DNA from: an uncultured Thermoanaerobaculia bacterium
GTDB lineage: Bacteria; Acidobacteriota; Thermoanaerobaculia; Multivoradales; CAZRFU01
Direction of reading: 5' to 3'
Length of the DNA: 64,000 bases
NCBI GenBank assembly: GCA_964599475.1
Contig: CAZRFU010000016.1
Coordinates: 17,619 to 81,618 of the forward strand
Part shown: piece after piece, positions 2 to 64,000 of the stretch
Numbering within the stretch: position 1 is the stretch's first letter
Layout of the letters: each line of letters opens with the position of its first letter
Position numbers and translations under genes: made by a program
The notes under the pieces: generated by a model
The model's database searches: none
Told to the model about the DNA's origin: nothing
What the model saw: the letters and a program-made list of their open reading frames with translations, nothing else

Positions 2-1498
2 GCGCGCGAGGTCCTCGAGGAGGGTGTCTCACGGATTGATCGAGCACTCGGCGATCAGCCCGCGGTGGCTGCCGACCTCTACGACGCCCTGGCCGAGATT
101 TACCAGCGCCTTGGCCTGGGAGCTCAGGGCCTCGATCTCGCCCAACGTGCCTTGGCGCTGCGCGAGCGAGAGCTCGCACCCGACCCGGCCAAGATCGGGG
201 AAACGCTGACCCGGATTGCCGCGCTCCAACTCGAGGGCCCGGAGCCGGCGCAGGCCCTTGCAGGTGCACACCGTGCGTGGTCGTTGCTGAGTCGCGAGCT
301 GGGCGAGGACAGTCTCGAGGCAGCACGCGCGGAAAGTGAGCTCGCTGCGGCCCTGATCTGGGCGGACCGCGCCGAGGAGAGCGTGGCCCATCACCAACAC
401 GCCTTCGACGTGCTCAGTGCCCTCCTGGGCCCCGACGATCCTCGCACCGCCGCACAGCTGGTGGCTTTGGCTCGTGCCCTCGAACAAGCGGGCCGGTACG
501 AGGACTCGATCGCTGCATTTCGGCAGGCCCTGCCGGCGCTCGAAGGAGCCCTCGGCGACCTCCACCCGGATGTCTCCTACGCGCGCCGGGATCTCGCCGG
601 GGTGCTCGATCGGGTCGGACGGCCCGCCGAAGCCGAGCCGCTGCTCGAGGCGGCGTTGGCGGCGCAACGCAAGGTGCTCGGGAACGACCACTGGCAAGTC
701 GGCGAAACTCTCTTCTCCTACGGCATTCTGCTCAACACCGCCGGACGTTTGCAGGAGGCGGAAGCTGCCTTCCGCGAGGCGCTGGCGATCGACGGCCCCG
801 CCACCCTCGCCGCCCACTGCCTGCGCTTCCTCGGCACCAACCTGGCCGAGCAGGGGCGCCTCGACGAGGCGGTCGAGAGTCTCGAATCGGCGATAGCCGA
901 GTACCGTCGTGTCGAGGGCCTGGACTCGACCGAGGCCTGGCGTGCGGTCGCCAGCCTCGGCCACGCCCACCTGCGCGGCGGGCGGGTCGAGCTGGCCCTC
1001 GCCACCCTGCGCGAGGCGGTGGCGCGGCTGGAGGAGCTGGCCGGGCCCGAGAGCTACCAGGTACGGATGCCGCTGCGCCAGCTCGGTGAGAGCCTGCGGT
1101 GGGCCGGCGAGCTCGAGCAGGCGGTTGCGGTGTTGCGCCGCACCCGCGCCCTCGAGGTCACCCTCTTCGGCACCGAGGACCATGGCGACATCGCCCTGAC
1201 CGATCTCCAGCTCGCGCGAACGCTGTTCGCCGTCGGGACCAAACCCGCACGCGAGGAGGCAAGCGCCCTGTTCGACGAAGCGATCGAGCTGCTGCGGCGC
1301 CACAAGACTCGCAGTGCCAGTCTCGGCGAGGCCCTGCTGGAGCGCGAGCGGCTCAGGCTCGCGCTGGGTGCCCCGGCGATCCGAGCCAACCTCGCCGAAG
1401 CCGTCGAGCGGCTGATGAGTGCCTACGACGCCGACGACCCCCGCACCCGCGAAGCTCGGGCCCTCCTTTCCGGCTCCGACCCGACCGCCAATCCCTGA
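2..1498 (+). CDS. TPR-repeat protein with its 5' end off-window. Probably the C-terminal sensor half of a Ser/Thr kinase paralogous to those at 6974 and 10109.
   Basis: The frame is open from base 2, with no stop before the listed Met at 65. It has repeated Ala/Leu-rich TPR-like helix pairs in the same style as the C-terminal halves of the two kinases downstream. Stop at 1496-1498. Confidence 0.7.
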   Translation, partial: AREVLEEGVSRIDRALGDQPAVAADLYDALAEIYQRLGLGAQGLDLAQRALALRERELAPDPAKIGETLTRIAALQLEGPEPAQALAGAHRAWSLLSRELGEDSLEAARAESELAAALIWADRAEESVAHHQHAFDVLSALLGPDDPRTAAQLVALARALEQAGRYEDSIAAFRQALPALEGALGDLHPDVSYARRDLAGVLDRVGRPAEAEPLLEAALAAQRKVLGNDHWQVGETLFSYGILLNTAGRLQEAEAAFREALAIDGPATLAAHCLRFLGTNLAEQGRLDEAVESLESAIAEYRRVEGLDSTEAWRAVASLGHAHLRGGRVELALATLREAVARLEELAGPESYQVRMPLRQLGESLRWAGELEQAVAVLRRTRALEVTLFGTEDHGDIALTDLQLARTLFAVGTKPAREEASALFDEAIELLRRHKTRSASLGEALLERERLRLALGAPAIRANLAEAVERLMSAYDADDPRTREARALLSGSDPTANP

Positions 1499-1627
1499 CC
1501 CGGGCTCTTCCTCGTTCACCAGCTCCTCCCCGGAGACCTGACTGCCTTGCCGGCGGCCGGCGCCCCACCGAACAGCGTGGCCCGCTGCCAGCGAGATTGT
1601 CGATCTGGGTTCTGAAAGGAGCTTCAG

Positions 1628-3157
1628 ATGGTCTCCGAACGAGCACCACGTCACCTCGCGCGTCACCTCGCGGGCGCATTGACGATTTTCGCCGCCGGCA
1701 GTGTCTCAGCCCAGGAGATCGGCGTCGACGACTTTCGCATCAGCGCCATGGGAGGCAGCGGAGATAGTGCCTACACGGCGATCTACTCGTCGGTTGCCCA
1801 CAACCCCCTCGCCGAGGAGTACCTGGTGGTGTGGCTCGGCGACACCAACACCGGCGACGGCGACAACCACTACCAGATCTTCGGGCAGCGTATCGACGTC
1901 GCGACCGGTGCCGAGCTCGGAACCGACGACTTCGTGATCGCAAGCCTCGGCGGCCCCTTCGGATCGGCGCCGTTCGCCTGGGTGACGGTGGCTCACGGCT
2001 CCGGCCAGAACGAGTACCTGGTCGTGTGGTCGACGATCACCGGGCTCGGCAACGGCAGCGACTACGAGATCTTCTGTCGTCGCGTCGCCGCCGACGGCAC
2101 ACCCCTCGGCGTCGCGCTCCAGATCAGCCACATGCACAACCCGACCCAGCCGCAGAACGAGAGCCAGTACACCGCCACCGAGCCCGCCGTCGCCTACAAC
2201 CCGCTCGCGGACGAGTTCCTGGTGGTGTGGGCGGGCGACCATGGTGTCGGCGGACTGGTCGACGAGGAAGTCGAGATCTTCGGGCAGCGCATCAGTGCCA
2301 CGACCGGCCTCGAGATCGGCACCGACGACGTGCGCATCAGCGACGTCGGAGGCACCGGCAGTACCTTCTCGGATGCCCGCTCGCCCGACGTCACCTACAA
2401 CTCGATCGACGACGAGTACCTGGTGGTGTGGGCCGCCGACGATCCCGATGCGGGCACGGCCGACAACGAGCTCGAGATCTACGGGCAGCGCCTGACCTCG
2501 CTCGGCGGCGAGATCGGCGTCAACGACTTCCGCGTCACCACCCATGGCCCCGCCAACGAGCCGGGCTACTCCGCGCTCGAGCCCGCGGTCGCCTTCAGCC
2601 CGGATCACTCCGAGTACCTGGTGGTGTTCAGCGCACCCGAAGCCTGGTCGCAGGCGGTCGGACCCGGCTTCGAGATCTACGCCCAGCGTCTCGACGCGAG
2701 CGCAAGCGCACTCGGCGGCGCCTTCAGGCTGAGCGATGTCGGCGGCCTGGCGGAGCTCGCTTTCGACGCCGACACCCCCGATGTCGCCTATGCCCCGGCT
2801 TCGGAGCGCTGGATCGTCGTCTTCCGAGCCGACGACAACGTCGGCGGGCAAGTCGACGGCGAGCGCGAGGTCCACCTGCAGGAGGTCGATGCGGCAACCG
2901 GCGCCGAGGTCGGCGACAACGACGCCCGCGTCAGCGACATGGGCCCCACCGGCAGCACGATCTACCAGACCTCACTGCCCACCGTCGCTTGCGCCGCTGC
3001 GACCGAGTGCCTGGTGATCTGGCGCGGCGACGACAACGTCGGCGGCCTGGTCAACGACGAATTCGAAATCTTCGGCCAACGCTGGGCAACCACACTGCCG
3101 GCCTCGATCTTCGAGGACGGGTTCGAAAGTGGCGACACCTCGGCGTGGAGCCTGTAG
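1628..3157 (+). CDS. Secreted seven-repeat protein (putative beta-propeller) ending in a DGFESGDTSAWS tail
   Basis: AAGGAG lies 6 nt upstream of ATG 1628. The N-terminus is signal-like (LAGALTIFAAGSVSAQE). Seven repeats of about 60-70 aa each contain E[YF]LVVW ... EI[FY]GQR ... G. The C-terminus is IFEDGFESGDTSAWSL. Confidence 0.8.
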   Translation: MVSERAPRHLARHLAGALTIFAAGSVSAQEIGVDDFRISAMGGSGDSAYTAIYSSVAHNPLAEEYLVVWLGDTNTGDGDNHYQIFGQRIDVATGAELGTDDFVIASLGGPFGSAPFAWVTVAHGSGQNEYLVVWSTITGLGNGSDYEIFCRRVAADGTPLGVALQISHMHNPTQPQNESQYTATEPAVAYNPLADEFLVVWAGDHGVGGLVDEEVEIFGQRISATTGLEIGTDDVRISDVGGTGSTFSDARSPDVTYNSIDDEYLVVWAADDPDAGTADNELEIYGQRLTSLGGEIGVNDFRVTTHGPANEPGYSALEPAVAFSPDHSEYLVVFSAPEAWSQAVGPGFEIYAQRLDASASALGGAFRLSDVGGLAELAFDADTPDVAYAPASERWIVVFRADDNVGGQVDGEREVHLQEVDAATGAEVGDNDARVSDMGPTGSTIYQTSLPTVACAAATECLVIWRGDDNVGGLVNDEFEIFGQRWATTLPASIFEDGFESGDTSAWSL

Positions 3158-32775: not shown

Positions 32776-33074
32776 GGACGCAACGATATCCCGCCGGCCT
32801 CGAACTGCGCATCACCCGAAGGTGTGGGCTTGGTCCAGCCCGCGGGAGACTCAGCCGCGTTCGCGCGCTTGCGACATTTCTCGAGGGTACCGTCAGTGGC
32901 TCGCCTCCGCTTGGTCGTGAGGTCGTGCGCTCCGCTCGACGACCGCTGCGGACCTCGGCACCACCGGATCCCAGATCTCGGCTCCCGGCCTTGGTCCCCC
33001 TATCGTCGACCGACTGCTGGTCAGCGAGCAGGGCGGGCGGTGGTGTGGAGGGCTCGCGGGTTGCGGCCTCCGCG

Positions 33075-54574: not shown

Positions 54575-57500
54575 TCACACCCACTCGGCGCACAGCAGTT
54601 CCGCCTGGGCCAGCACCGTCTTGACCGCTTGGTCCTGGAGATCCGGCGGGTAGCCCCAACGATTGAGGATGCGTTTGACCATCACCCGCATGCGTGCGCG
54701 GGCGCTTTCGCGGACGGTCCAGTCGATGGTGGCGCTCTTCCTCACCTGGGTGATCAGCTCGGCGGCGATCGCGCGCAACTTCTCGTCACCCATCGCCTGC
54801 ACCGCGCTGTCGTTGGTGGCGAGCGCGTCGTAGAAGGCGATCTCGTCGTCGCTGAGACCGAGCGCTTCGCCGCGTTTCCCGGCGGCTTCGAGGTCCTTGG
54901 CGAGCTTGATCAGCTCTTCGATGACTTCCATCGTCGAGATCGCGCGGTTGTGGTACTTGTTCAGCGTTTCCTTGAGCTTTTCGCTGAAGACCTGGCTCTC
55001 GACCAAGTTGCGCTTGCCGCGCACCTTGAGCTCGTCTTCGAGCAGCTTGCGCAGGAGCTCGGCGGCGACGTTCTTGTGCTGCAGGCCGCGGACCTCGGCG
55101 AGGAACTGGTCGCTCAAGATCGAGATGTCGGGTTTCTGCAGACCGGCGGCGGTGAACACGTCGATCACTTGGCCGTCGGTGGTGATCGCCTTGCTCACCA
55201 ACTGGCGGATCGCCGCGTCGATCTGTTCGGGGGTCTTGCCGCTCCCTGAGCCACCCTTGGCGAAGGCCGCTTGCAGCGCCTGGAAGAACGACACGTCGTC
55301 GCGGATCGTCGTCGCCTCGTCGGTTGCCGCCGCGAGCGCGAAGGCACGCGAGAGCTCCATCACCACCCTGGCCCACCGTTGTTGACCGTCCGGCTGCGCC
55401 AGGATGTGCTCGCGGCCGGCGGGAATCAACGCGAGGCGTTCGCTCGGCGAGCCGCTGATCCAGCGGCTCCAATCGAAGCCGTTCAGCATCGAGCAGGCGA
55501 CCTCGTGCTTCTCGAGCATCACCGCAATCGCGGCAGCCGTGTCGAAGGTCGGATCACCCTTGCCGCCGCTTTCGGTGTAGGTCGCCAGTGCCCGTTTGAG
55601 CTGATCCGCGAGCCCGAGGTAGTCGACCACCAGGCCGCCGGGCTTGTCGCGAAACACCCGATTCACTCGTGCGATCGCCTGCATCAGGCCGTGGCCGTGC
55701 ATCGGCTTGTCGACGTACATGGTGTGCAGACACGGCGCATCGAAGCCGGTCAGCCACATGTCGCGCACGATCACGATGCGGAAGGGATCTTTGGCGTCTT
55801 TGAAGCGCGTCGCCATCCGCCGCCGACGGTCTTTGCTGCGGATGTGCGGTTGCCACGCAGGGCCGTCGTCGGCGCTGCCGGTCATCACCACCTTGACCAC
55901 ACAGCTGCGGTCCTTTTCGGCCTCGGCATCGTCGCCGACACTCGCCCATTCGGGGCGAAGCGCGATCAGCGCGTCGTAGAGGTCGACGCAGATGCGCCGG
56001 CTCATGCACACCACCATCGCCTTGCCGTCCATCGCCTCGAGGCGCTTCTCGAAGTGCGCCACCAAGTCCGCCGCGATCAACGCGATGCGTTTCGGGTCGC
56101 CGACCAAGGCTTCGAGCGCCGCCCACTTGCTCTTGAGCTTCTCGCGGTGGGTCGGCTCTTCGCCCTCGGTGATCTCGTCAAACTCGTCGTCGAGCTTGGG
56201 GACCTCGGCGGCGTTGAGGCTGAGCTTCGAGATCCGGCTTTCGTAGTAGATCGGCACCGTCGCCTGATCCGCCACCGCTCGCTGGATGTCGTAGATCGAG
56301 ATGTAGTCGCCGAACACCACCCGCGTGTTGGCGTCGGCGAGCTCGATCGGGGTGCCGGTGAAGCCGATGTAGCAGGCGTTCGGCAGCGCGTCGCGCAGGT
56401 TGCTCGCAAAGCCGTACGACAACGCGCCGGTCTTGGGGTTGACCTTGGCGCCGAAGCCGTATTGGCTGCGGTGTGCTTCATCGGCGATCACCACGATGTT
56501 CTGCCGCGCACTCAGCACCGGCATGGCTTCGCCCTGCTCCGGCAGGAACTTGTGAATGGTGGTGAAGACCACGCCGCCGCTCGCGACCGTCAGGAGCTCG
56601 CGCAGCTGCTCACGGCTGCCGGCCTGCACCGGCGTCTGCCCGAGCACGTCGGCGCAGCGCTGGAACTGGCCGAAGAGCTGGTCGTCGAGGTCGTTGCGGT
56701 CGGTCAACACCACCAGCGTCGGGTTCTGCATCACCGGGTGGCGTACCACTCGTGCGGCGAAGAAGAGCATCGAAAAGCTCTTGCCGCTGCCCTGGGTGTG
56801 CCACACCACCCCGGCGCGGCGGTCGCCCGGCTGGCCGCCGCGCATCCGCCCGGCCCAATAGGTGCCCGGCGTTTCCTTCGCCTCGTCGGCTCGCGCCAAC
56901 CCACTCGCCCGCACCGTCTCCTCGACCGCGGCGTTGACCGCGTGGAACTGGTGGTAGCCGGCGATGATCTTGTGCAGCGCCCCCGAGTCCGGATCCTCCT
57001 CGAACACGATGAAGTGCTGCAGCAGCTCGAGGAAACGCCGCTGGTCGAACACTCCGCGGATCAACACCTCGAGCTCGAGCGCATTCGCCGGCGCGTCGCC
57101 CTCGCCGTCGACCGTGCGCCAGACCTTGAACCACTCCTGGTTCGCCGTGAGCGACCCCATCCGCGCCTGCAGTCCGTCACTCACCACCAACACCGCGTTG
57201 TACTGCAACAGCGACGGAATTTCGGCCTTGTAGGTCTGCACCTGCGCGTAGGCGCTCCAGATCGTCGCGTTTTCATCCGCCGCGTTCTTGAGCTCGATCA
57301 CGCCGAGCGGCAGCCCGTTGACGAACACCACCAGATCCGGCCGGCGGCTGTGCTGGCCCTCGATCACCGTGAACTGGTTCACCACCAGCCAGTCGTTGGC
57401 GGCGGAATCGGTGAAGTCGACCAGCCGCACGTGGTCGCCGGCGATCGACCCGTCCAGGCGGCGGTATTCCACCTGCACCCCGTTGCGCAGCAGCTTGTGG

Positions 57501-57763
57501 AAGGCACGGTTGGTCTGGATCAGCGACGGCGTGGCGATCCGCACCACCCGGCGCAGGGCATCCTCGCGAGCGTCCGCAGGGATCGTTGGGTTGAGCCGCG
57601 CAATAGCGTCCCGCAGCCGGCCGGCGAGCAAGACGTCGCCAAACGAATCCCTCTCCGCCGCCGGTTCGCCCGGCGCCAGGTGTGGCCCGTGGCCGACGGC
57701 GTAGCCGAGACCAGCAAACCAGTCGAGGGCGGCGGATTCGACGATGGATTCGTCGAGACTCAT
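54575..57763 (-). CDS. hsdR: Type I restriction enzyme R subunit
   Basis: PD-(D/E)xK nuclease region ([19 protein letters not shown]), SF2 motor motifs ([12 protein letters not shown]-like IADEAHRSQ) and a DUF3387-like C-terminus. 1062 aa. Confidence 0.95.
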
Positions 57764-57766
57764 CGG

Positions 57767-58219
57767 CTAGTCCCACACATACCGCTCGTCGAACTCGATG
57801 CCATACTTCTTCAGGAGGCGGCGGTACTCCTCTTGGAACGAGATCTTGCGATGATGCTGCGCCTGGCCGGCGAGGTATTTCTCGAGAGCAGCGCGATGGG
57901 AAGGACTGAGCGAAAACGCTCCGTAGCCGCTCTGCCAGTGAAAGTCCTGCGAGCCTGGGGCCTTGGATTTGAGCCACTTCGTCGATCCGGTCTTGATGAC
58001 CTGCACCAGGTCGGCCAGCGCCACCGTTCTCGGGTGCGCGACGAGGAGGTGGATGTGGTCCGCCACCGATCCCGCCGCCAGCAGCGTGCCCTGGTGGTTC
58101 AGGATGATGCCGCCGATGTAAGCGTGGAGCTCGTCGCGGATGTCGTCAGCCAGGCGCGGTTCGCGGTTCTTGGTCGAAAAGACCAAATGGACGAGGATCT
58201 GCGCGAGGGACTGTGGCAT
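57767..58219 (-). mobile_element. Y1 HUH transposase of the IS200 / REP-associated (RAYT) type
   Basis: ATG 58219 (MPQSLAQILVHLVFSTKNREP), HUH motif HIHLLV and a Tyr-containing WQSGYGAFS. Flanked by REP-like hairpin elements. Its stop lies 3 nt from the hsdR ATG. Confidence 0.85.
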
Positions 58220-58300
58220 GGCAAGCAAGCGCTCCGGCGTTTTCGGCCGAGTCTATCCGTCCCGACGGGCGCGGGTCCGCAAGTTGGCGATGGTCGCGCT

Positions 58301-58533
58301 CCGGGGCCCCAACGGGGCCCAATGAGATAGCCCAGGGCAACGCCCTGGGTAGGCAAGCCCCCGTCCCTTCCCAAGCCCTGAAAGGGCGAAACATCCCTCC
58401 GCGACGATCCTGCGCCGCAACCGCCCCGGAGTTCCGCCCTTTCAGGGCTCGGAACCAATGGGGGGTGCCGCGGTACCCAGGGTGTCGCTTCGCTCTACCC
58501 TGGGCTATCTCATCTCGCCCCTTTGGGGCTTCG
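58301..58533. repeat. Head-to-head pair of REP-like elements
   Basis: The forward unit (58301-58397) contains GGCCCCAACGGGGCCCAATGAGATAGCCCAGGGCAACGCCCTGGGT...GCCCTGAAAGGGCGAAAC. The inverted variant unit is at 58428-58533. Each has three GC-rich hairpins. Confidence 0.85.
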
Positions 58534-58687
58534 GATCGGCAGCCCGGCACCGGCGGGGCACCAGTGGATCGCCCCAACGACCGGCCCGCGATGCAGCACC
58601 CCGCCGTCGGGTCCCCGTGGCCCCAACCGGCACAGGTGGATCGCCCCAACGCCCGCCAGTGGCACGGCACCGCACGGATGCTCGGCT

Positions 58688-58784
58688 CCGGGGCCCCAAC
58701 GGGGCCCAATGAGATAGCCCAGGGCAACGCCCTGGGTTGGGCAAGCCGGTCCCATTCCCGAGCCCTGAAAGGGCGAAACATCCC
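58688..58784. repeat. REP-like element (forward unit, second copy)
   Basis: Nearly identical to 58301-58397 and 60300-60396. Shares a 25-nt 5' extension (GGCACCGCACGGATGCTCGGCTCCG) with the 60.3-kb copy. Confidence 0.85.
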
Positions 58785-58832
58785 AGGCCGACCCGGGTCC
58801 ACCGTCCGCGCGCGATCCACCGGCCCCACGGC

Positions 58833-60125
58833 CTACCCCGGATACGCCGTGGCCAACGCCCGCAAACCCAAAAAGCACACGCCGACGCCACCAACCGCCG
58901 CCACGCCGATCGCCGCCCTTGCATGGCGCCGCAACAAGCCCCATCGGCTCGCCCCGCCAACCGCCAAGGCACACGCCGGGCCGATGGCGGGTAAGACCAG
59001 CCGCCCCTGGGGCTGCCAATCCGAGCTGACCATGTACACCGCCAGCAGCACCAGCGCCGCCCCGATCCCGGACACCGCGGCGATCGCGACCACACCACGC
59101 TCCCGCCACGTGGCCCACACCCCGCCGACGATCGCCGCAGTCGGCAGCAGGAACCATGCGTAGGCGGCCACCGGCAAGTGAACGTTGAACCACCCGAGCT
59201 TGGCCCAGGTGCCGAGCCACAGGGTGACCATCCACCCCGGCTCGGTGATCAACGCGACCGCGGGCCCACCGTGCAACTTCCAGCTCGGCGGGACCGCATG
59301 CCCGAATGGGATGCCACGTGTCGCCTGAAACGCCAGAAGCCCCGCCAGCAGCGAGCTCCACAGTCCAACTCCCGCAGCGGCGACGCTGCGGCGCATCCGG
59401 GCGACACCGATCACCACCAGCGGCGCGAACAAGAAGGCCGCGGTCAATTTGGCCCACAGCGCCACTCCCGCGACGACGGCGGCAAGCAAGTACAGGCGAG
59501 TCGACCGGGTTTCCCCCGCACGCAAGAGCAGGGCAAAGCACACGGTCGAGAGGGCGATGGTGGCGGCGTCGTTGCTGAAGGTAGCGAACGAAAACACCAA
59601 CTGGGGCACCAGCAGGAACACCAGGAACACCGGCACCACCTCGACCGGCCTCCGGCCGGCCTGCCTCGACACCACTGCACACCCCCACAGCGCCGGCACG
59701 AACACCACCGCCCAGGCGACGTTCACCAACCGGGGCGCCCACCACCCCCGCCGGGGTTCCCCGTCGACATAGGGTTTGGGTGGCTGACTGAAATCGAAAT
59801 CCGCCGATCGGCGCAATGCCGGCAGCTCCGAATCCCCTCCCGCCACGCGGAGCGCCGCCGCCGCAGCGAGATAGGCAAGCGGCGGTTGGTGCAGCTCGTA
59901 GCTCACCTCGCCGGGTAGGGCAGGGACAACCGGCCCGCTCCCGGCGCGCGCCACCTCGCGCACGTATTCGAGATGCGCCGCCTCGTCCGGAGCTTCGCCG
60001 AGCGGCGTGACCCATGAATACGCCAGCGCCAGCACGACGAACGCAACACCGCCGAACGTTGCGAGCACTCGGAGTGGGCGCTCCGAGCTGGTGGTGGGTC
60101 TGGCGTCCGCTTGGTTCGGGGCCAT
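58833..60125 (-). CDS. Polytopic membrane protein (DUF2142 / GT-C glycosyltransferase-like)
   Basis: 430 aa and at least 10 TM segments. N-terminal loop motif PLGEAPDEAAHLEYV, as in DUF2142/ArnT-like proteins. High GC. Bracketed by REP clusters. Confidence 0.65.
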   Translation of the reverse strand: MAPNQADARPTTSSERPLRVLATFGGVAFVVLALAYSWVTPLGEAPDEAAHLEYVREVARAGSGPVVPALPGEVSYELHQPPLAYLAAAAALRVAGGDSELPALRRSADFDFSQPPKPYVDGEPRRGWWAPRLVNVAWAVVFVPALWGCAVVSRQAGRRPVEVVPVFLVFLLVPQLVFSFATFSNDAATIALSTVCFALLLRAGETRSTRLYLLAAVVAGVALWAKLTAAFLFAPLVVIGVARMRRSVAAAGVGLWSSLLAGLLAFQATRGIPFGHAVPPSWKLHGGPAVALITEPGWMVTLWLGTWAKLGWFNVHLPVAAYAWFLLPTAAIVGGVWATWRERGVVAIAAVSGIGAALVLLAVYMVSSDWQPQGRLVLPAIGPACALAVGGASRWGLLRRHARAAIGVAAVGGVGVCFLGLRALATAYPG

Positions 60126-60273
60126 GGTCGCGGGTTGCCTTTATGCAGCCAAGTGGTTTGTCGCCAGAAACATACATTGGCCTCCGGGTGGCAGGCTGCG
60201 CTACCGCCTAAACAAGCTCACTCAGGCCTTGCGTCGCTCGTGCAGGTCTTTGACGCCTTGTTGGAGGGCAGGC

Positions 60274-60508
60274 TCGGCACCGCACGGATGCTCGGCTCCG
60301 TGGCCCCAACGGGGCCCAATGAGATAGCCCAGGGCAACGCCCTGGGTGTCGGGCAAGCCCACCGACTCCCCGAGCCCTGAAAGGGCGAAACCTCCCGCGA
60401 CGGTTCGCCCCGCCCCCTCGGAATTCCGCCCGTTCAGGGCTCCGGACCTCCAGGGGTGCCGCTGTACCCAGGGTGTCGCTTCGCTCTACCCTGGGCTGTC
60501 TCATCTCG
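60274..60508. repeat. Head-to-head pair of REP-like elements (third locus)
   Basis: Forward unit at 60300-60396 with the 5' extension from 60274. The inverted variant unit at 60420-60508 is truncated where it abuts the hsdR stub. Confidence 0.85.
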
Positions 60509-60515
60509 TGAGCTG

Positions 60516-60903
60516 GGTTCACCACCAACCAGTCGTTGGCGGCGGGATTGGTGAAGTCGACCAGCCGCACGTGGTCGCCGGCGATCGACCCGTCCGGCCG
60601 GCGGTATTCCACCTCCACGCCGTTGCGCAGCAGCTTGTGGAAGGCACGGTTGGTCTGGATCAGCGACGGCGTACCGATCCGCACCACTCGGCGCAGGGCA
60701 TCCTCGCGAGCGTCCGCAGGGATCGTTGGGTTGAGCCGCGCAATAGCGTCCCGCAGCCGGCCGACGAGCAACACCTCGCTGAACGAATCGCGCTCCGCCT
60801 CCGGTTCGCCGGGGGCGAGGTGAGGCCCGTGGGCGACGGCGTAGCCGAGACCGGCAAACCAGTCGAGGGCGGCGGATTCGACGATGGATTCGTTCAAGCT
60901 CAT
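60516..60903 (-). pseudogene. hsdR: 5' stub of an hsdR gene (first ~129 codons)
   Basis: Aligns gap-free with 57376-57763 at a constant offset of 3140 nt, with about 93% identity by manual count. The frame leaves hsdR sequence after DWLVVN and reads into the REP element. Confidence 0.85.
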
Positions 60904-62786
60904 TCGGCGGTTGACGTCTGGATGGGGCCGATCATCGTGGCTACCTGACCAACACCCTCGTCCGCCACGGCAGGAACGGCTGCTGGTGGCTCCGCGGCAA
61001 AGAACTTCTCCACCTCCTTGACTAGAGGTGCAAACCCGACAAAGGCATCATTCAGCGCCTGGCCGGAGAGCCCGCACACGTACCTTGCTAGCTTCCCTTT
61101 CGCGAAGGGCTTGAGTTGTCTAGTCAACAGCAAGAGTTCGTCCTTGCTAGCGTTCTTCGACCGACAGTAGTTCTCGAACGTGTCATCAAGTGCGGTGAAC
61201 TTGTTCAAGGCAACGGCTTCGGATCGCTCGATGAGCCACCCTTTCTGCTCGGCGTACCTCCAGACCTCGATGGGGAAGAGTTCTTCCAACGCTATCGGCA
61301 GCAGGAGGCCTTTTCTTGCTATTGCCACCAGAGCATGGGGCTTGTACGCCCCGAGGAGCAAGGCCTTGATTCTATGCCTTCCATTTTCGCGGAGGAACGC
61401 TTGATTCGAACTCTTGACACGGTCGTTGTTCACCACCGCGCTTTTTGCCTCGCGGCCCGCATCATCGTCGTCGAATAAGCCTAGTGCAAGATGCGAAGTT
61501 CGGCTGTGTGCCCAAGAAATGAGCATGTCCTTAACCCAGGGGGCTCCGGCCTGGTCTTCGCTTCGTACAGTCGCCCGTTCCAGGACAGTGGGGGCCAACA
61601 GCTCCAGGGCCCTCGTGAAGACCCGAGCATCGGATGTACCTTCGACGAAGAGAGCAGGGCTAGCGATGTGGTTGGTCCTTTGAAGGATCGCGAGCGCTCG
61701 CTCCCGACTCTCGACGGCCTCGGCAATCATCGGGGCAACGACCGGCATGAGGCCGACGTGTTCGTCAAGTTCATGCATCTCGTTTGAGGCCAGCGTTTTG
61801 ACCTGAGTGGCACCGTCCTCGCCACTGCCAGAGACGAGGAAGGGAGTCACTGTAGGTGAGGATCTGGCCAGCGAATAGAAAGCTGGCGAGTGCGTGGTAG
61901 CGAAAATCTGGATCTCCTTGCTGTAGGCGACGCACTCGCTCGCAAGTTCGGCCGCCTTGAGCATTTCAAGATTGTTCTCAGGCTCCTCGAAGCCCCAAAT
62001 CGTCTGGACCTGCGGACTACCCTTGACTCGCCGTGTTCGCGACTGCTGGGCTAGGTAGTGCAGGAGGATCGGAATGTGGCGCGCCTTGACTCCGTCGCCC
62101 CGGAGGCCCAGCGGCACTCCGAGCGGGCCGTCCGATTGGAACTCAAGCCGCGAGAACAGCTCGCGAAGGTCGGCGGGTAGCTGGATCGTGCTCTTGATGC
62201 CAAGCTTGGCTTCGATCTCAGCAAGGGCGGCCTGCGTCTTCTCGTTGATGGTGGAGGTGAAGCCGCCAGAAGCCGCGCGAATGTCCGCGGCGACCGTGCC
62301 GACGAGGACATCGTGAAGGCCCCGAAGTAGTGTCTGGAAGTAGTCGCTGCCTTTCACGGCAGGTACGTACTCGAACCGCACGGAGTTGAGGAATGCCGGA
62401 ACCTTTGATCGCGGCTTGAGTTGGCTCCCGTCGAGGTGTCGAAGCTCGTTTCCAGGCTCATGGTGCCCGCCAGAACGCCACACCTTTCGCCAGAGGATCT
62501 CGGACGCGTCGTAGGAGGGGGGGAGCCTCATAGTTAGAGTTACACGAACCTCTTTGGCCTTGTTCGACGGGGTCCTCGCGTGTTTGCTGAAGTCGCGGTC
62601 AAACACGAAGGGGCTCGCGGCGGCAGTGCCGTTGAAGAACAAGTCGAGGGCACGAAGGATGTTCGATTTGCCGACATCGTTCAGGCCTACGAATAGATTG
62701 AGCCGGTTGGTCCGGAAGTCCTCGTTGAGGATGGAGCGGTAGTTCTGAATCCGGACAGACGTGATCTGCATTCCGTCGACCGCCAT
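60900..62786 (-). CDS. OLD-family-like ABC ATPase + Toprim nuclease embedded in the Type I R-M operon
   Basis: ATG 62786 lies 5 nt after the hsdS TAA, with GAGGAG upstream. Walker A GLNDVGKSN, Walker B IWGFEEPENNLE, TTHSP, and a Toprim-like FVEGTSD plus FDDDDAG. Its TGA overlaps the ATG of the hsdR stub. Lower GC than the flanks. Confidence 0.75.
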   Translation of the reverse strand: MAVDGMQITSVRIQNYRSILNEDFRTNRLNLFVGLNDVGKSNILRALDLFFNGTAAASPFVFDRDFSKHARTPSNKAKEVRVTLTMRLPPSYDASEILWRKVWRSGGHHEPGNELRHLDGSQLKPRSKVPAFLNSVRFEYVPAVKGSDYFQTLLRGLHDVLVGTVAADIRAASGGFTSTINEKTQAALAEIEAKLGIKSTIQLPADLRELFSRLEFQSDGPLGVPLGLRGDGVKARHIPILLHYLAQQSRTRRVKGSPQVQTIWGFEEPENNLEMLKAAELASECVAYSKEIQIFATTHSPAFYSLARSSPTVTPFLVSGSGEDGATQVKTLASNEMHELDEHVGLMPVVAPMIAEAVESRERALAILQRTNHIASPALFVEGTSDARVFTRALELLAPTVLERATVRSEDQAGAPWVKDMLISWAHSRTSHLALGLFDDDDAGREAKSAVVNNDRVKSSNQAFLRENGRHRIKALLLGAYKPHALVAIARKGLLLPIALEELFPIEVWRYAEQKGWLIERSEAVALNKFTALDDTFENYCRSKNASKDELLLLTRQLKPFAKGKLARYVCGLSGQALNDAFVGFAPLVKEVEKFFAAEPPAAVPAVADEGVGQVATMIGPIQTSTAE

Positions 62787-62791
62787 TCTGG

Positions 62792-64000
62792 TTACTCCTC
62801 GAAGAAGGCTCTTCCACCAAGTAGTTCTGGCAACAAGGCTTCGCGCTGTCCGGCGAGAAGGTGACCTTCGGCCGCACGGCTCTCTGCCATGGCCAACAGG
62901 GGGCTTACCCTGTCGGTGAATGCGTGGGCCAAAGCGGTCGGTGGAATCAGGCACGGCAGGGCGAAGGCATCTTCGGGCCTAACGCGCTGATGGCTCCCCG
63001 TCGTGCCAGTCACGAGTGAGGCATAGGCGGTTGAGAACGGTTGGCTTGTGAAGAGCGAATAGAGAAACTCACTCGAAGCGCTAGTGGCTGGCTCGACCAC
63101 GATGAATTCGGTCGAGCAGACGGACGGGCGAGAACCGTGGAGCTTGGCAGGGAACCACACGCGAGGGATGTGAGGGTTGAGCTTGGACAACAGCACGGCG
63201 CCTTGGGGAACCGCGAACTTGTTGCTTCGGATGGCTGCCCCAAGCTCTACCTTCGGTTTCCGGCCATCGTCGAAGGCAGGGAGGCTGTAGTGGTCGAACT
63301 GCTCGCCCGGGCACAGGCCTGGGTTCAACGAGGCCTTTCCAACGGTCGCCAACTCGGAAAGGGGGCCGGTTCTCCACCCGCGTGGAATCCGCCCGAGGTC
63401 GGAGTCTTGGAAGGAGTCGGGGAAGAGGGCGGCGGTTTCGGGGTCGAGGCCGGGGGGGTGGCGGCCGTCGAGTTTGGCGCGGACGGGGTCGAAGTCGACG
63501 AACCAGCTCTGGAAGAGCGCCCGCGCCATGGCCTCGAGGGTGGCGTTCATGCGGCGGTTGAGCTCGATCTTGTCGTCGAGGGCGCCGAGGGTCTCCGCGA
63601 TCAGCCTCTGATGACCGATGGGCGGCACAGTGATCTTTAGTCGGCGTTGGTCGGTAAGGCTCAGGTAGGGGGCCATGTCCGTTGAGGCCTTCATCCCGGA
63701 GAGCTGCTCGCTGAACTCGCGCCCGCAGGCCCAGTAGCGCAGGAACCCGCTGTCCAGACGATCAAGGTCGCGACTTCGCCAGTAGCTCAGGTGGGGCGAA
63801 TAGACGAAGGGAGGCATTCGTGGAGTAACGAACGAGGTTCGACCAGTGCTGTTGCCTTTCGTCGTGATGATCGTGTCGCCGACGCGGGACATCTTCGGTC
63901 GCACCTTTTCGAAGAGGTGCTCGTGGAAATGCTCAACCCCAGAGAAGTCGATGTGGCTGTCAGTGACGTGGCCGGCACGAAGGAAGATTGGACCGTTGCC
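62792..64000 (-). CDS. hsdS: Type I restriction enzyme S (specificity) subunit, 5' end off-window
   Basis: The frame is open to base 64000. Central conserved region PPIGHQRLIAETLGALDDKIELNRRMNATLEAMARALFQSWFVDFDPV and a matching C-terminal conserved helix, separating two target-recognition domains. Confidence 0.9.
   Translation of the reverse strand, partial: GNGPIFLRAGHVTDSHIDFSGVEHFHEHLFEKVRPKMSRVGDTIITTKGNSTGRTSFVTPRMPPFVYSPHLSYWRSRDLDRLDSGFLRYWACGREFSEQLSGMKASTDMAPYLSLTDQRRLKITVPPIGHQRLIAETLGALDDKIELNRRMNATLEAMARALFQSWFVDFDPVRAKLDGRHPPGLDPETAALFPDSFQDSDLGRIPRGWRTGPLSELATVGKASLNPGLCPGEQFDHYSLPAFDDGRKPKVELGAAIRSNKFAVPQGAVLLSKLNPHIPRVWFPAKLHGSRPSVCSTEFIVVEPATSASSEFLYSLFTSQPFSTAYASLVTGTTGSHQRVRPEDAFALPCLIPPTALAHAFTDRVSPLLAMAESRAAEGHLLAGQREALLPELLGGRAFFEE

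Follow-up and report, generated by a model that had tools for sequence, protein, structure and literature searches.

The window analysed here, a 64,000-nt stretch of contig CAZRFU010000016.1 from an uncultured Thermoanaerobaculia bacterium, contains part of a Type I restriction-modification (R-M) locus in which hsdR is present twice, as an intact gene and as a 5′ fragment (the stub) separated from it by 2752 nt. An initial annotation of this DNA had placed clusters of repetitive extragenic palindromic (REP) sequences, a gene for a 430-aa polytopic membrane protein and a Y1 transposase gene between the two copies, and we confirmed all of them. As it had also stated, the transposase stop codon (TAG, 57767–57769) lies 3 nt from the hsdR ATG, so that hsdR stands directly behind the transposase gene. 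The features of the locus, in window coordinates, are as follows.

54575–57763, minus strand: intact hsdR, 1062 aa (Pfam HSDR_N, SWI2_SNF2, T1R_D3-like and T1RH-like_C; TIGR00348).
57767–58228, minus strand: Y1 (HUH) transposase gene of the REP-associated tyrosine transposase (RAYT)/IS200 kind (Pfam Y1_Tnp, 3.5e-21).
58298–58784, no strand assigned: REP doublet (58298–58538) and single REP unit (58685–58784), forming the array that precedes the Y1 gene; collinear with the array of the related locus L084.
58833–60125, minus strand: DUF2142/PMT_2-like polytopic membrane protein gene, 430 aa, a REP-flanked passenger (Pfam DUF2142, 4.9e-11).
60295–60508, no strand assigned: REP doublet (REPIN-like), its outer unit truncated at the joint with the stub (unit alignment).
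60509–60903, minus strand: hsdR 5′ stub, codons 1–129 intact and followed by a frameshift (Pfam HSDR_N; ATGA overlap with the AAA15 gene).
60900–62786, minus strand: embedded guest gene (AAA15) for a 628-aa AAA_15 ABC-type ATPase of the OLD/GajA/AriA kind (Pfam AAA_15/AAA_21).
62792–64000, minus strand: hsdS specificity gene (Pfam Methylase_S; PADLOC Specificity_I, 1.4e-67).
63374–63601, minus strand: central conserved region of hsdS, a candidate site for a homologous crossover as the left anchor (94.3% identity to L084).

The intact hsdR encodes an N-terminal PD-(D/E)XK nuclease, an SF2 motor and a C-terminal helical domain in one protein. It scored 570 bits against TIGR00348 (cut-off 285) and 1132 bits against PADLOC REase_I, it also matched Pfam ResIII (in the SWI2_SNF2/ResIII region), and the nuclease motif PDLVVF...IELK was visible in its translation. 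Its first 388 nt (57376–57763) are the counterpart of the stub: on the minus strand, 60903–60516 and 57763–57376 form a gap-free alignment in which the offset is 3140 nt throughout and 28 of 388 nt are mismatched (92.8% identity). The duplication noted earlier was thereby reproduced to the base, including the 28 mismatches over 57381–57763 (383 nt; the number is also 28 over 388 nt) and the 11 amino acid changes in 129 codons. The differing codons comprise 14 synonymous and 11 non-synonymous ones. Just outside the aligned block, identity at offset 3140 was at chance level (3–8 of 20 positions), and a search of the 64-kb window for further hsdR fragments found none besides the stub and the full copy.

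The homology between the copies starts at the ATG and ends at about 60509 (hsdR nt ~394). Family-wide conservation stands at ~0.2 up to the hsdR ATG and at ~0.8 from that codon on, a step that explains why the homology of the window copies starts at the start codon and that fits the hsdR 5′ end being the first shared sequence to the right of a variable zone. The stub had been described as leaving hsdR sequence after ...DWLVVN; the reading frame is indeed lost at that point, through a 1-nt insertion, but the homology itself runs ~7 nt further. The stub is hsdR-like over codons 1–129 only and matches positions 2–116 of the 198-position HSDR_N profile. It contains neither the catalytic D...ExK, which begins near residue 153 of the full protein, nor the motor domains of a functional HsdR. 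Its open reading frame (ORF) continues through REP sequence to 60208 (60208–60903, 231 aa) and is a predicted protein at NCBI (P0126). Long spurious ORFs, of 314–389 aa, are also found in the REP arrays of L084.

On its other side, the stub ATG overlaps the stop codon of the AAA15 gene (ATGA), and the stub may be translated owing to this coupling. We considered the ATGA overlap as a special feature and rejected it: the hsdR family begins ATGA, and therefore any in-frame upstream ORF stops at ATGA. The coupling had been reported as one to a "guest nuclease", of which the coupling stands and the nuclease is unproven, no nuclease domain having been detected. The N-terminus of AAA15 is an OLD/Gabija-type ABC ATPase domain (Pfam AAA_15/AAA_21; PADLOC AriA, Old and GajA); the PADLOC matches are confined to this part, and the PDB match to GajA covers residues 6–88 only. 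We detected no C-terminal Toprim or other nuclease domain, and residues ~310–628 matched no Pfam, NCBIfam or PADLOC family. The exact protein is present at NCBI (P0001). Upstream of AAA15 and on the same strand, 5 kb from the full hsdR, lies hsdS, which runs off the window with its frame still open at base 64000, and hsdM lies beyond the window end. A promoter and terminator scan yielded nothing above shuffled sequences.

We obtained close relatives of the locus through the 90%-identity cluster of the hsdR protein and through homologues of the RAYT and DUF2142 proteins. When genomes and metagenomes were scanned with hsdR, no relative above 82% amino acid identity came up, and no species-representative genome exceeded 78% DNA identity to either hsdR copy. 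The cluster representative, P0122, which is 97% identical to the window hsdR at the amino acid level, was located on two JGI contigs, L084 and L085, where the order is hsdM, hsdS, a 2.2-kb REP array, the Y1 (RAYT) gene, a 3-nt gap and hsdR. The stub, AAA15 and the DUF2142 gene are all missing from L084. Window 58654–54577 is collinear with L084 at 93.7% identity over 4086 nt, with 96.8% in the Y1 gene, 88.5% in hsdR nt 1–388 and 94.6% in the rest of hsdR; we located no recombination breakpoint within hsdR relative to L084, identity being roughly even after nt 400. The same succession of REP, Y1 gene (93% amino acid identity), 3-nt gap and hsdR was seen in L171–L174. Because the REP-Y1-3 nt-hsdR block exists in stub-free relatives (L084/L085, L171–174), the transposase-hsdR junction is a conserved feature of the locus lineage that predates the event and not an insertion boundary. 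The view that the intact hsdR has lost its coupling to hsdS and the guest is right as to the anatomy, but the same arrangement holds the sole hsdR of L084, and with a ratio of non-synonymous to synonymous substitution (dN/dS) of 0.077 between the two, the window hsdR in its RAYT-hsdR arrangement is under strong purifying selection. An uninterrupted hsdS-X-hsdR order, proposed earlier as something to look for in related genomes, was found in L170, where hsdS, AAA15 (63% identity) and hsdR (82% amino acid identity) follow one another with no stub.

Within the interval between the hsdR copies, the REP-like units have three hairpins each, are arranged as inverted doublets and share exact runs of ~46 nt. 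Five units occur in the window, all within 58298–60508 (58298–58538, 58685–58784 and 60295–60508), and none in the other 61 kb. In the unit adjoining the stub, the inner hairpins and what follows as far as GAGATGAGACAG are preserved, and hsdR sequence stands in place of the outer hairpin, GCCCCAAnGGGGC. This outer hairpin is kept in 22 of 22 other units from the window, L084 and L169 (an independent contig), which makes the unit at the stub the sole exception among 23. The bases shared at the hsdR/REP joint amount to only 2–3 nt (CG..GAT). The joint is an illegitimate one inside a pre-existing repeat and not the clean end of an element, and the earlier description of a REP/RAYT-bounded insert is not supported, the REP unit at the stub being a broken one.

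These observations bear on whether the duplication arose by insertion in place, in which a circular or transposing REP-DUF2142-REP-RAYT element carrying hsdR nt 1–394 would have integrated into an AAA15-hsdR locus, by a single (Campbell-type) crossover or by action of the Y1 transposase at a REP hairpin, and the two copies would then have diverged. The direct repeats flank the interval exactly, the REP unit breaks at a hairpin foot, where HUH enzymes cut, and a RAYT gene with an hsdR 5′ unit recurs in a further context, L171. The L171 case is, however, an internal deletion of a full hsdR (nt 1–629 joined to the last 88 nt) and not a mobile fragment; L084 has the RAYT gene followed by a full hsdR without any stub; and, of the 23 REP units, the one at the joint alone is incomplete. 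Nor is there an integrase, the Y1 gene being the only recombinase-like gene, and of the two ends that an integrative element would have, one is a truncated REP unit and the other a conserved gene junction that is stub-free in L084. We rejected the clean insertion of a REP/RAYT element on the truncated unit and on the conservation of the RAYT-hsdR junction elsewhere, and duplication of the hsdR 5′ end by an old insertion, one of the two origins first suggested, is likewise at odds with the conserved block in stub-free relatives. In-place insertion in its general form we consider improbable.

The divergence between the copies points the same way. At each of the 11 amino acid differences between the two copies the family (73 members) is variable, with both states common, and neither copy has odd residues. 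The dN/dS was 0.29 for stub versus full copy, 0.18 for stub versus L084 and 0.21 for two functional copies over the same codons. From the site pattern and dN/dS it follows that the stub diverged within a working gene of another lineage and not by local decay; neutral decay after duplication in place was rejected on both grounds, and the 7% divergence, cited earlier as an argument against a recent in-place duplication, remains a valid one. The stub is also a mosaic: nt 1–140 share 95% identity with the L171 allele, nt 141–285 share 97% with the full copy in the window, and nt 286–388 are 100% identical to L084, every other pair there standing at 94%. Six "full-unique" sites lie in a run at the 3′ end (post-hoc probability 3e-4). 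By these patterns, the hsdR 5′ end is a zone of repeated exchange among alleles. A purifying-selection signature combined with a mosaic of outside alleles also speaks against in-place insertion, under which the copies would have diverged side by side.

Two versions of one locus family thus meet in the window: P1, with the order hsdM-hsdS-AAA15-hsdR, known from L170, and P2, with hsdM-hsdS-REP array-Y1(RAYT)-hsdR, known from L084/L085. The present locus would consist of P1 sequence as far as hsdR nt ~394 and then, from within a REP unit, of P2 sequence that takes in the Y1 gene and the intact hsdR. In hsdS, the central conserved region has 94.3% identity to L084 and at most 87% to all other fetched loci, and neither of the target recognition domains (TRDs) that flank it is related to its L084 counterpart. 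Since this region (94.3%) and the REP-RAYT-hsdR block (93.7%) both match L084, L084-type sequence borders a ~2.9-kb segment of the window on either side. From TRD2 through AAA15 the GC content is 58–62%, as against 66–72% in the insert and the genome backbone, and the low-GC TRD2-AAA15-stub stretch between L084-type sides therefore looks like an imported patch.

We consider it likely, with reasonable though not high confidence, that recombination left the stub as a scar in the guest zone, the variable part of a mobile Type I locus, when a patch containing AAA15 and the stub entered a P2-type resident; AAA15 and the stub are probably the imported part. The resident would have acquired a patch of ~2.9 kb that spans hsdS TRD2, AAA15 and the donor hsdR up to nt ~394. 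On the left, the patch would have entered by homologous recombination within the hsdS central conserved region; on the right, it would have been joined illegitimately to the REP array. The pathway we infer is homology-facilitated illegitimate recombination, the hsdR homology of the patch presumably having been too short or too diverged for a clean double crossover. The stub would then be a non-functional remnant without the nuclease catalytic residues, and the hsdR behind the Y1 gene would be the working copy.

The initial annotation had offered recombination between two paralogous Type I loci as its other origin, and recombination between two such loci or alleles fits the evidence. It had added that the native hsdR was replaced; the reverse direction is more likely, as both the hsdS region and the REP-RAYT-hsdR block are L084-type. 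In the version with the native gene replaced, a resident hsdS-AAA15-hsdR locus would have taken up REP-DUF2142-REP-RAYT-hsdR from an L084-type donor, by a homologous crossover inside hsdR and an illegitimate joint of resident hsdR nt ~394 to a donor REP unit, and the stub would be what remains of the native gene. The structure fits this equally well, the stub retains its ATGA coupling to AAA15, and the GC content of the insert equals that of the genome backbone, which is also compatible with a donor of the same lineage. Against it stand the L084-type conserved region of hsdS (94.3%) on the AAA15 side, the 5′ 388 nt of the full copy, which at 88.4% are no closer to L084 than the stub is at 89.9%, and the illegitimate joint within the homologous anchor, which would be an awkward outcome for one-sided homologous recombination. 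We regard this direction as unlikely, at about the level of a minority view.

Several points weigh against import of an AAA15-stub patch into a P2-type resident. The three- and four-way comparisons give no simple allele tree, nt 1–285 of the full copy being no closer to L084 than the stub is, and later gene conversion or further recombination must therefore be invoked. No near-identical P1 parent was found among the sequences searched, and with the closest AAA15 homologue only 65% identical, the actual parent is evidently unsampled. The left crossover is placed from 228 nt of hsdS, with hsdM and the left flank outside the window. The DUF2142 module, absent from L084, needs a separate event or a different P2 variant, and linkage across the REP repeats is based on one assembly.

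This last point raises the question of an assembly chimera, in which strains ~93–95% identical would have been joined through REP repeats so that stub and full copy do not lie on one molecule. The exact proteins occur once, on what appears to be a single metagenome-style NCBI contig, related strains exist in other samples, and the REP units share exact runs of ~46 nt. The stub/REP joint, however, has no shared k-mer and so must exist in real DNA, segments 60352–58685 and 58654–54577 are each confirmed by independent assemblies, and both sides of the locus are L084-type. We therefore hold a chimera to be very improbable.

The stub is not unique to the window. Of the 137 related loci for which 1 kb or more of sequence upstream of hsdR was available (count not de-replicated), 35 carry one to four same-strand hsdR 5′ stubs between embedded defence genes, 46 stubs in total. 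All 46 begin at hsdR nt 1–35 and end at nt 42–264, save one ending at nt 500, and 14 of them end at nt 181–200; with 3.1 kb of hsdR as the query, no internal or 3′ hsdR fragments were found in the 137 loci. The sequences that follow the stubs form 33 distinct junction classes, and most stub events are therefore independent. Genes between stubs encode RhuM, PD-(D/E)XK, Schlafen/AlbA_2-HATPase_c_4, TIR, deaminase, DEAD helicase and DprA-like proteins, RhuM being present in 49 of 165 loci. In L081–83, an AAA15 homologue is followed 6 nt after its stop by a 128-nt stub, then by TIR and deaminase genes and then by hsdR. The stubs may be short because longer repeats are removed by recombination, or because longer fragments with the nuclease core are harmful. 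A further idea, that inserts usually start with an hsdS 3′ tail, was dropped, as it is true for two of the 46 stubs.

Taken as a group, the stubs could be the footprint of an ordered collection of guests, each arriving with or beside an hsdR start and leaving the previous start behind, which we put forward as a tentative idea more doubtful than not. If it were true, a row of stubs would record the order of guest acquisition, host recombination between the direct repeats formed by stub and full copy could release a guest as a circle that then enters another locus of the family, and the whole would amount to a cassette system without a dedicated recombinase. In a sharper variant, joining may be directed by hairpins, the RhuM cassette having a fixed end with a hairpin and the window joint lying at a REP hairpin.

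The RhuM guest has a conserved leader of ~55 nt, consisting of GGGCAACT, a hairpin with a 5-bp stem (four covarying pairs), AGTTCAA and a ribosome-binding site (L068:10190–10256, L054:8420–8480, L031:5540–5599, L086:7875–7943, L050:8872–8936 and others). Its left end (GGGCAAC and the covarying hairpin) is fused to an hsdS tail or to hsdR stubs of 65, 87, 195 and 199 nt, so that the cassette end is fixed and the stub end variable. Rfam gave no match on the L068 leader. A small hairpin element (..CTCACCCGGCCTCTCCC..GGGAGAGG..) lies inside or next to several stubs (L031:5439–5500, L080:10128–10180, L015:~300–360 and L068:6508–6560).

Turning to the Y1 gene and its surroundings, the protein has an HUH fold with HxH and a catalytic Tyr (DHIHLLV and WQSGYGAFS in the translation), and its true start is probably M4 at 58219 (150 aa). 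It reached 20.4 bits against the curated RAYT model, NCBIfam REP_Tyr_transpos (cut-off 80), and narrowly passed the NCBIfam IS200 model (57.1 bits, cut-off 55). Amino acid identity to the L084 gene, which JGI names RayT, is 95%, and the family is very large and highly conserved (>7800 matches at E ≤ 1e-20), with RayT as its JGI name and IS200/IS605 as its NCBI name. REP doublets stand on the 5′ side only of the Y1 gene in the window and L084, and on both sides in L175 (Haloferula sp.), where an 82%-identical homologue lies between hsdM and hsdS with REP arrays on both sides. Of 160 hsdR-anchored loci, four have a Y1/RAYT gene. Members of this family, accompanied by REP arrays, also occupy other Type I positions (L175:5600–7300, L096:2553–3120, L124:309–876, L073:3599–4045 and L108:4650–5090), L096 and L124 having the order RAYT-REP-RhuM-hsdR. 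The Rfam model Acido-Lenti-1 (RF01687) matched the REP units below threshold (25–27 bits against 37; window 58305–58349, 58498–58530, 58692–58736 and 60302–60346), a hint that this "sRNA" motif may be a REP-type repeat. As for the passenger, the REP-DUF2142-REP module is 93.7% identical in L169, and DUF2142 homologues at 58% identity sit in housekeeping contexts in metagenome-assembled genomes, one of them named Thermoanaerobaculia.

Homology among the window (54575), L084 (13189) and L171 (1304) ends at the hsdR stop codon, beyond which the window has a PorU-like gene, L084 a REP unit, a (GATCCCC)n repeat and a GyrB-like gene, and L171 a tRNA synthetase gene. As the right flanks differ past the stop codon, the locus has moved, and its right edge is the end of hsdR. 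In L171:589–1304 (also in L172–L174), a relative ~93% identical, hsdR has an internal deletion of ~2.5 kb in which nt ~630–3100 are lost; the remnant is followed by the synthetase gene, of class I aminoacyl type. A 37-nt segment of the window (32889–32925) is 97% identical to L171:4172–4208, at the far end of the L171 contig. In hsdS of the window, the first TRD (63602–64000) resembles that of L068 (Ca. Accumulibacter) at 79% DNA identity, beside a central region of L084 type, and this represents TRD shuffling across distant hosts.

Shuffling of hsdS TRDs proceeds by crossover in the conserved regions of hsdS, and the window agrees with it in that its central region is 94% identical to that of L084 with unrelated TRDs on both sides. 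It differs in that the exchanged tract continued past hsdS, through the guest gene and into hsdR. RAYT/REPIN systems consist of REP-associated tyrosine transposases with flanking REP doublets; like them, the window has a single 150-aa Y1 HUH gene preceded by inverted REP doublets, and the L175 homologue (82%) is REP-flanked on both sides. Unlike them, the window protein fails the REP_Tyr_transpos model and passes only the IS200 model, by a narrow margin, its repeats occur only at this locus, and the Y1 gene abuts hsdR (3-nt gap) with no 3′ REP. Homology-facilitated illegitimate recombination has been described for natural transformation in Acinetobacter and Streptococcus pneumoniae. The window resembles its products in having one apparent homology anchor (the hsdS conserved region or hsdR), a second joint with 2–3 nt of microhomology and a gain of a few kb of foreign DNA, the pathway here being deduced from the product only. 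It departs from them in that the joint lies in a hairpin-rich REP unit and that a duplicated gene start was left, which is not the classic insertion-deletion product.

We know of no established route by which embedded defence genes enter Type I R-M loci. On its own, the window stub is unremarkable as a scar; what makes it moderately interesting is that it recurs, as a readable trace of embedded-gene acquisition, one that can be dated by sequence and from which the history of a locus can be read. It indicates that alleles of one mobile locus exchange guests by recombining with one another, that the hsdR 5′ end is the right-hand edge of the exchange zone and that some exchanges are resolved illegitimately. 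As a practical warning, stubs are annotated as short proteins, as with the 231-aa ORF at NCBI. Embedded genes in Type I R-M loci now serve the discovery of new immune systems. Defence genes embedded between hsdS and hsdR of such loci have been reported under the term "guilt by embedding" (Payne et al., 2024, bioRxiv 10.1101/2024.01.29.577857), and DarTG2 in enteropathogenic Escherichia coli (EPEC) is embedded likewise, at a site called "a potential recombination hotspot" (PMC12255303). The window conforms to this pattern with an AAA_15 ATPase between hsdS and hsdR on the same strand, and its relatives carry RhuM, TIR, deaminase, Schlafen/AlbA_2, PD-(D/E)XK and DprA-like guests in the same zone. 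Gene remnants are unmentioned in these two reports (10.1101/2024.01.29.577857; PMC12255303), the text of Payne et al. also containing neither "recombination" nor "hsdR", and we found no description of hsdR 5′ stubs as guest-boundary markers in the open-access literature. The window insert differs from guilt-by-embedding loci in also holding non-defence cargo (the REP array, the Y1 transposase and the membrane protein), and, unlike in those reports, an hsdR 5′ stub can here mark each guest boundary, as a physical trace of guest addition.

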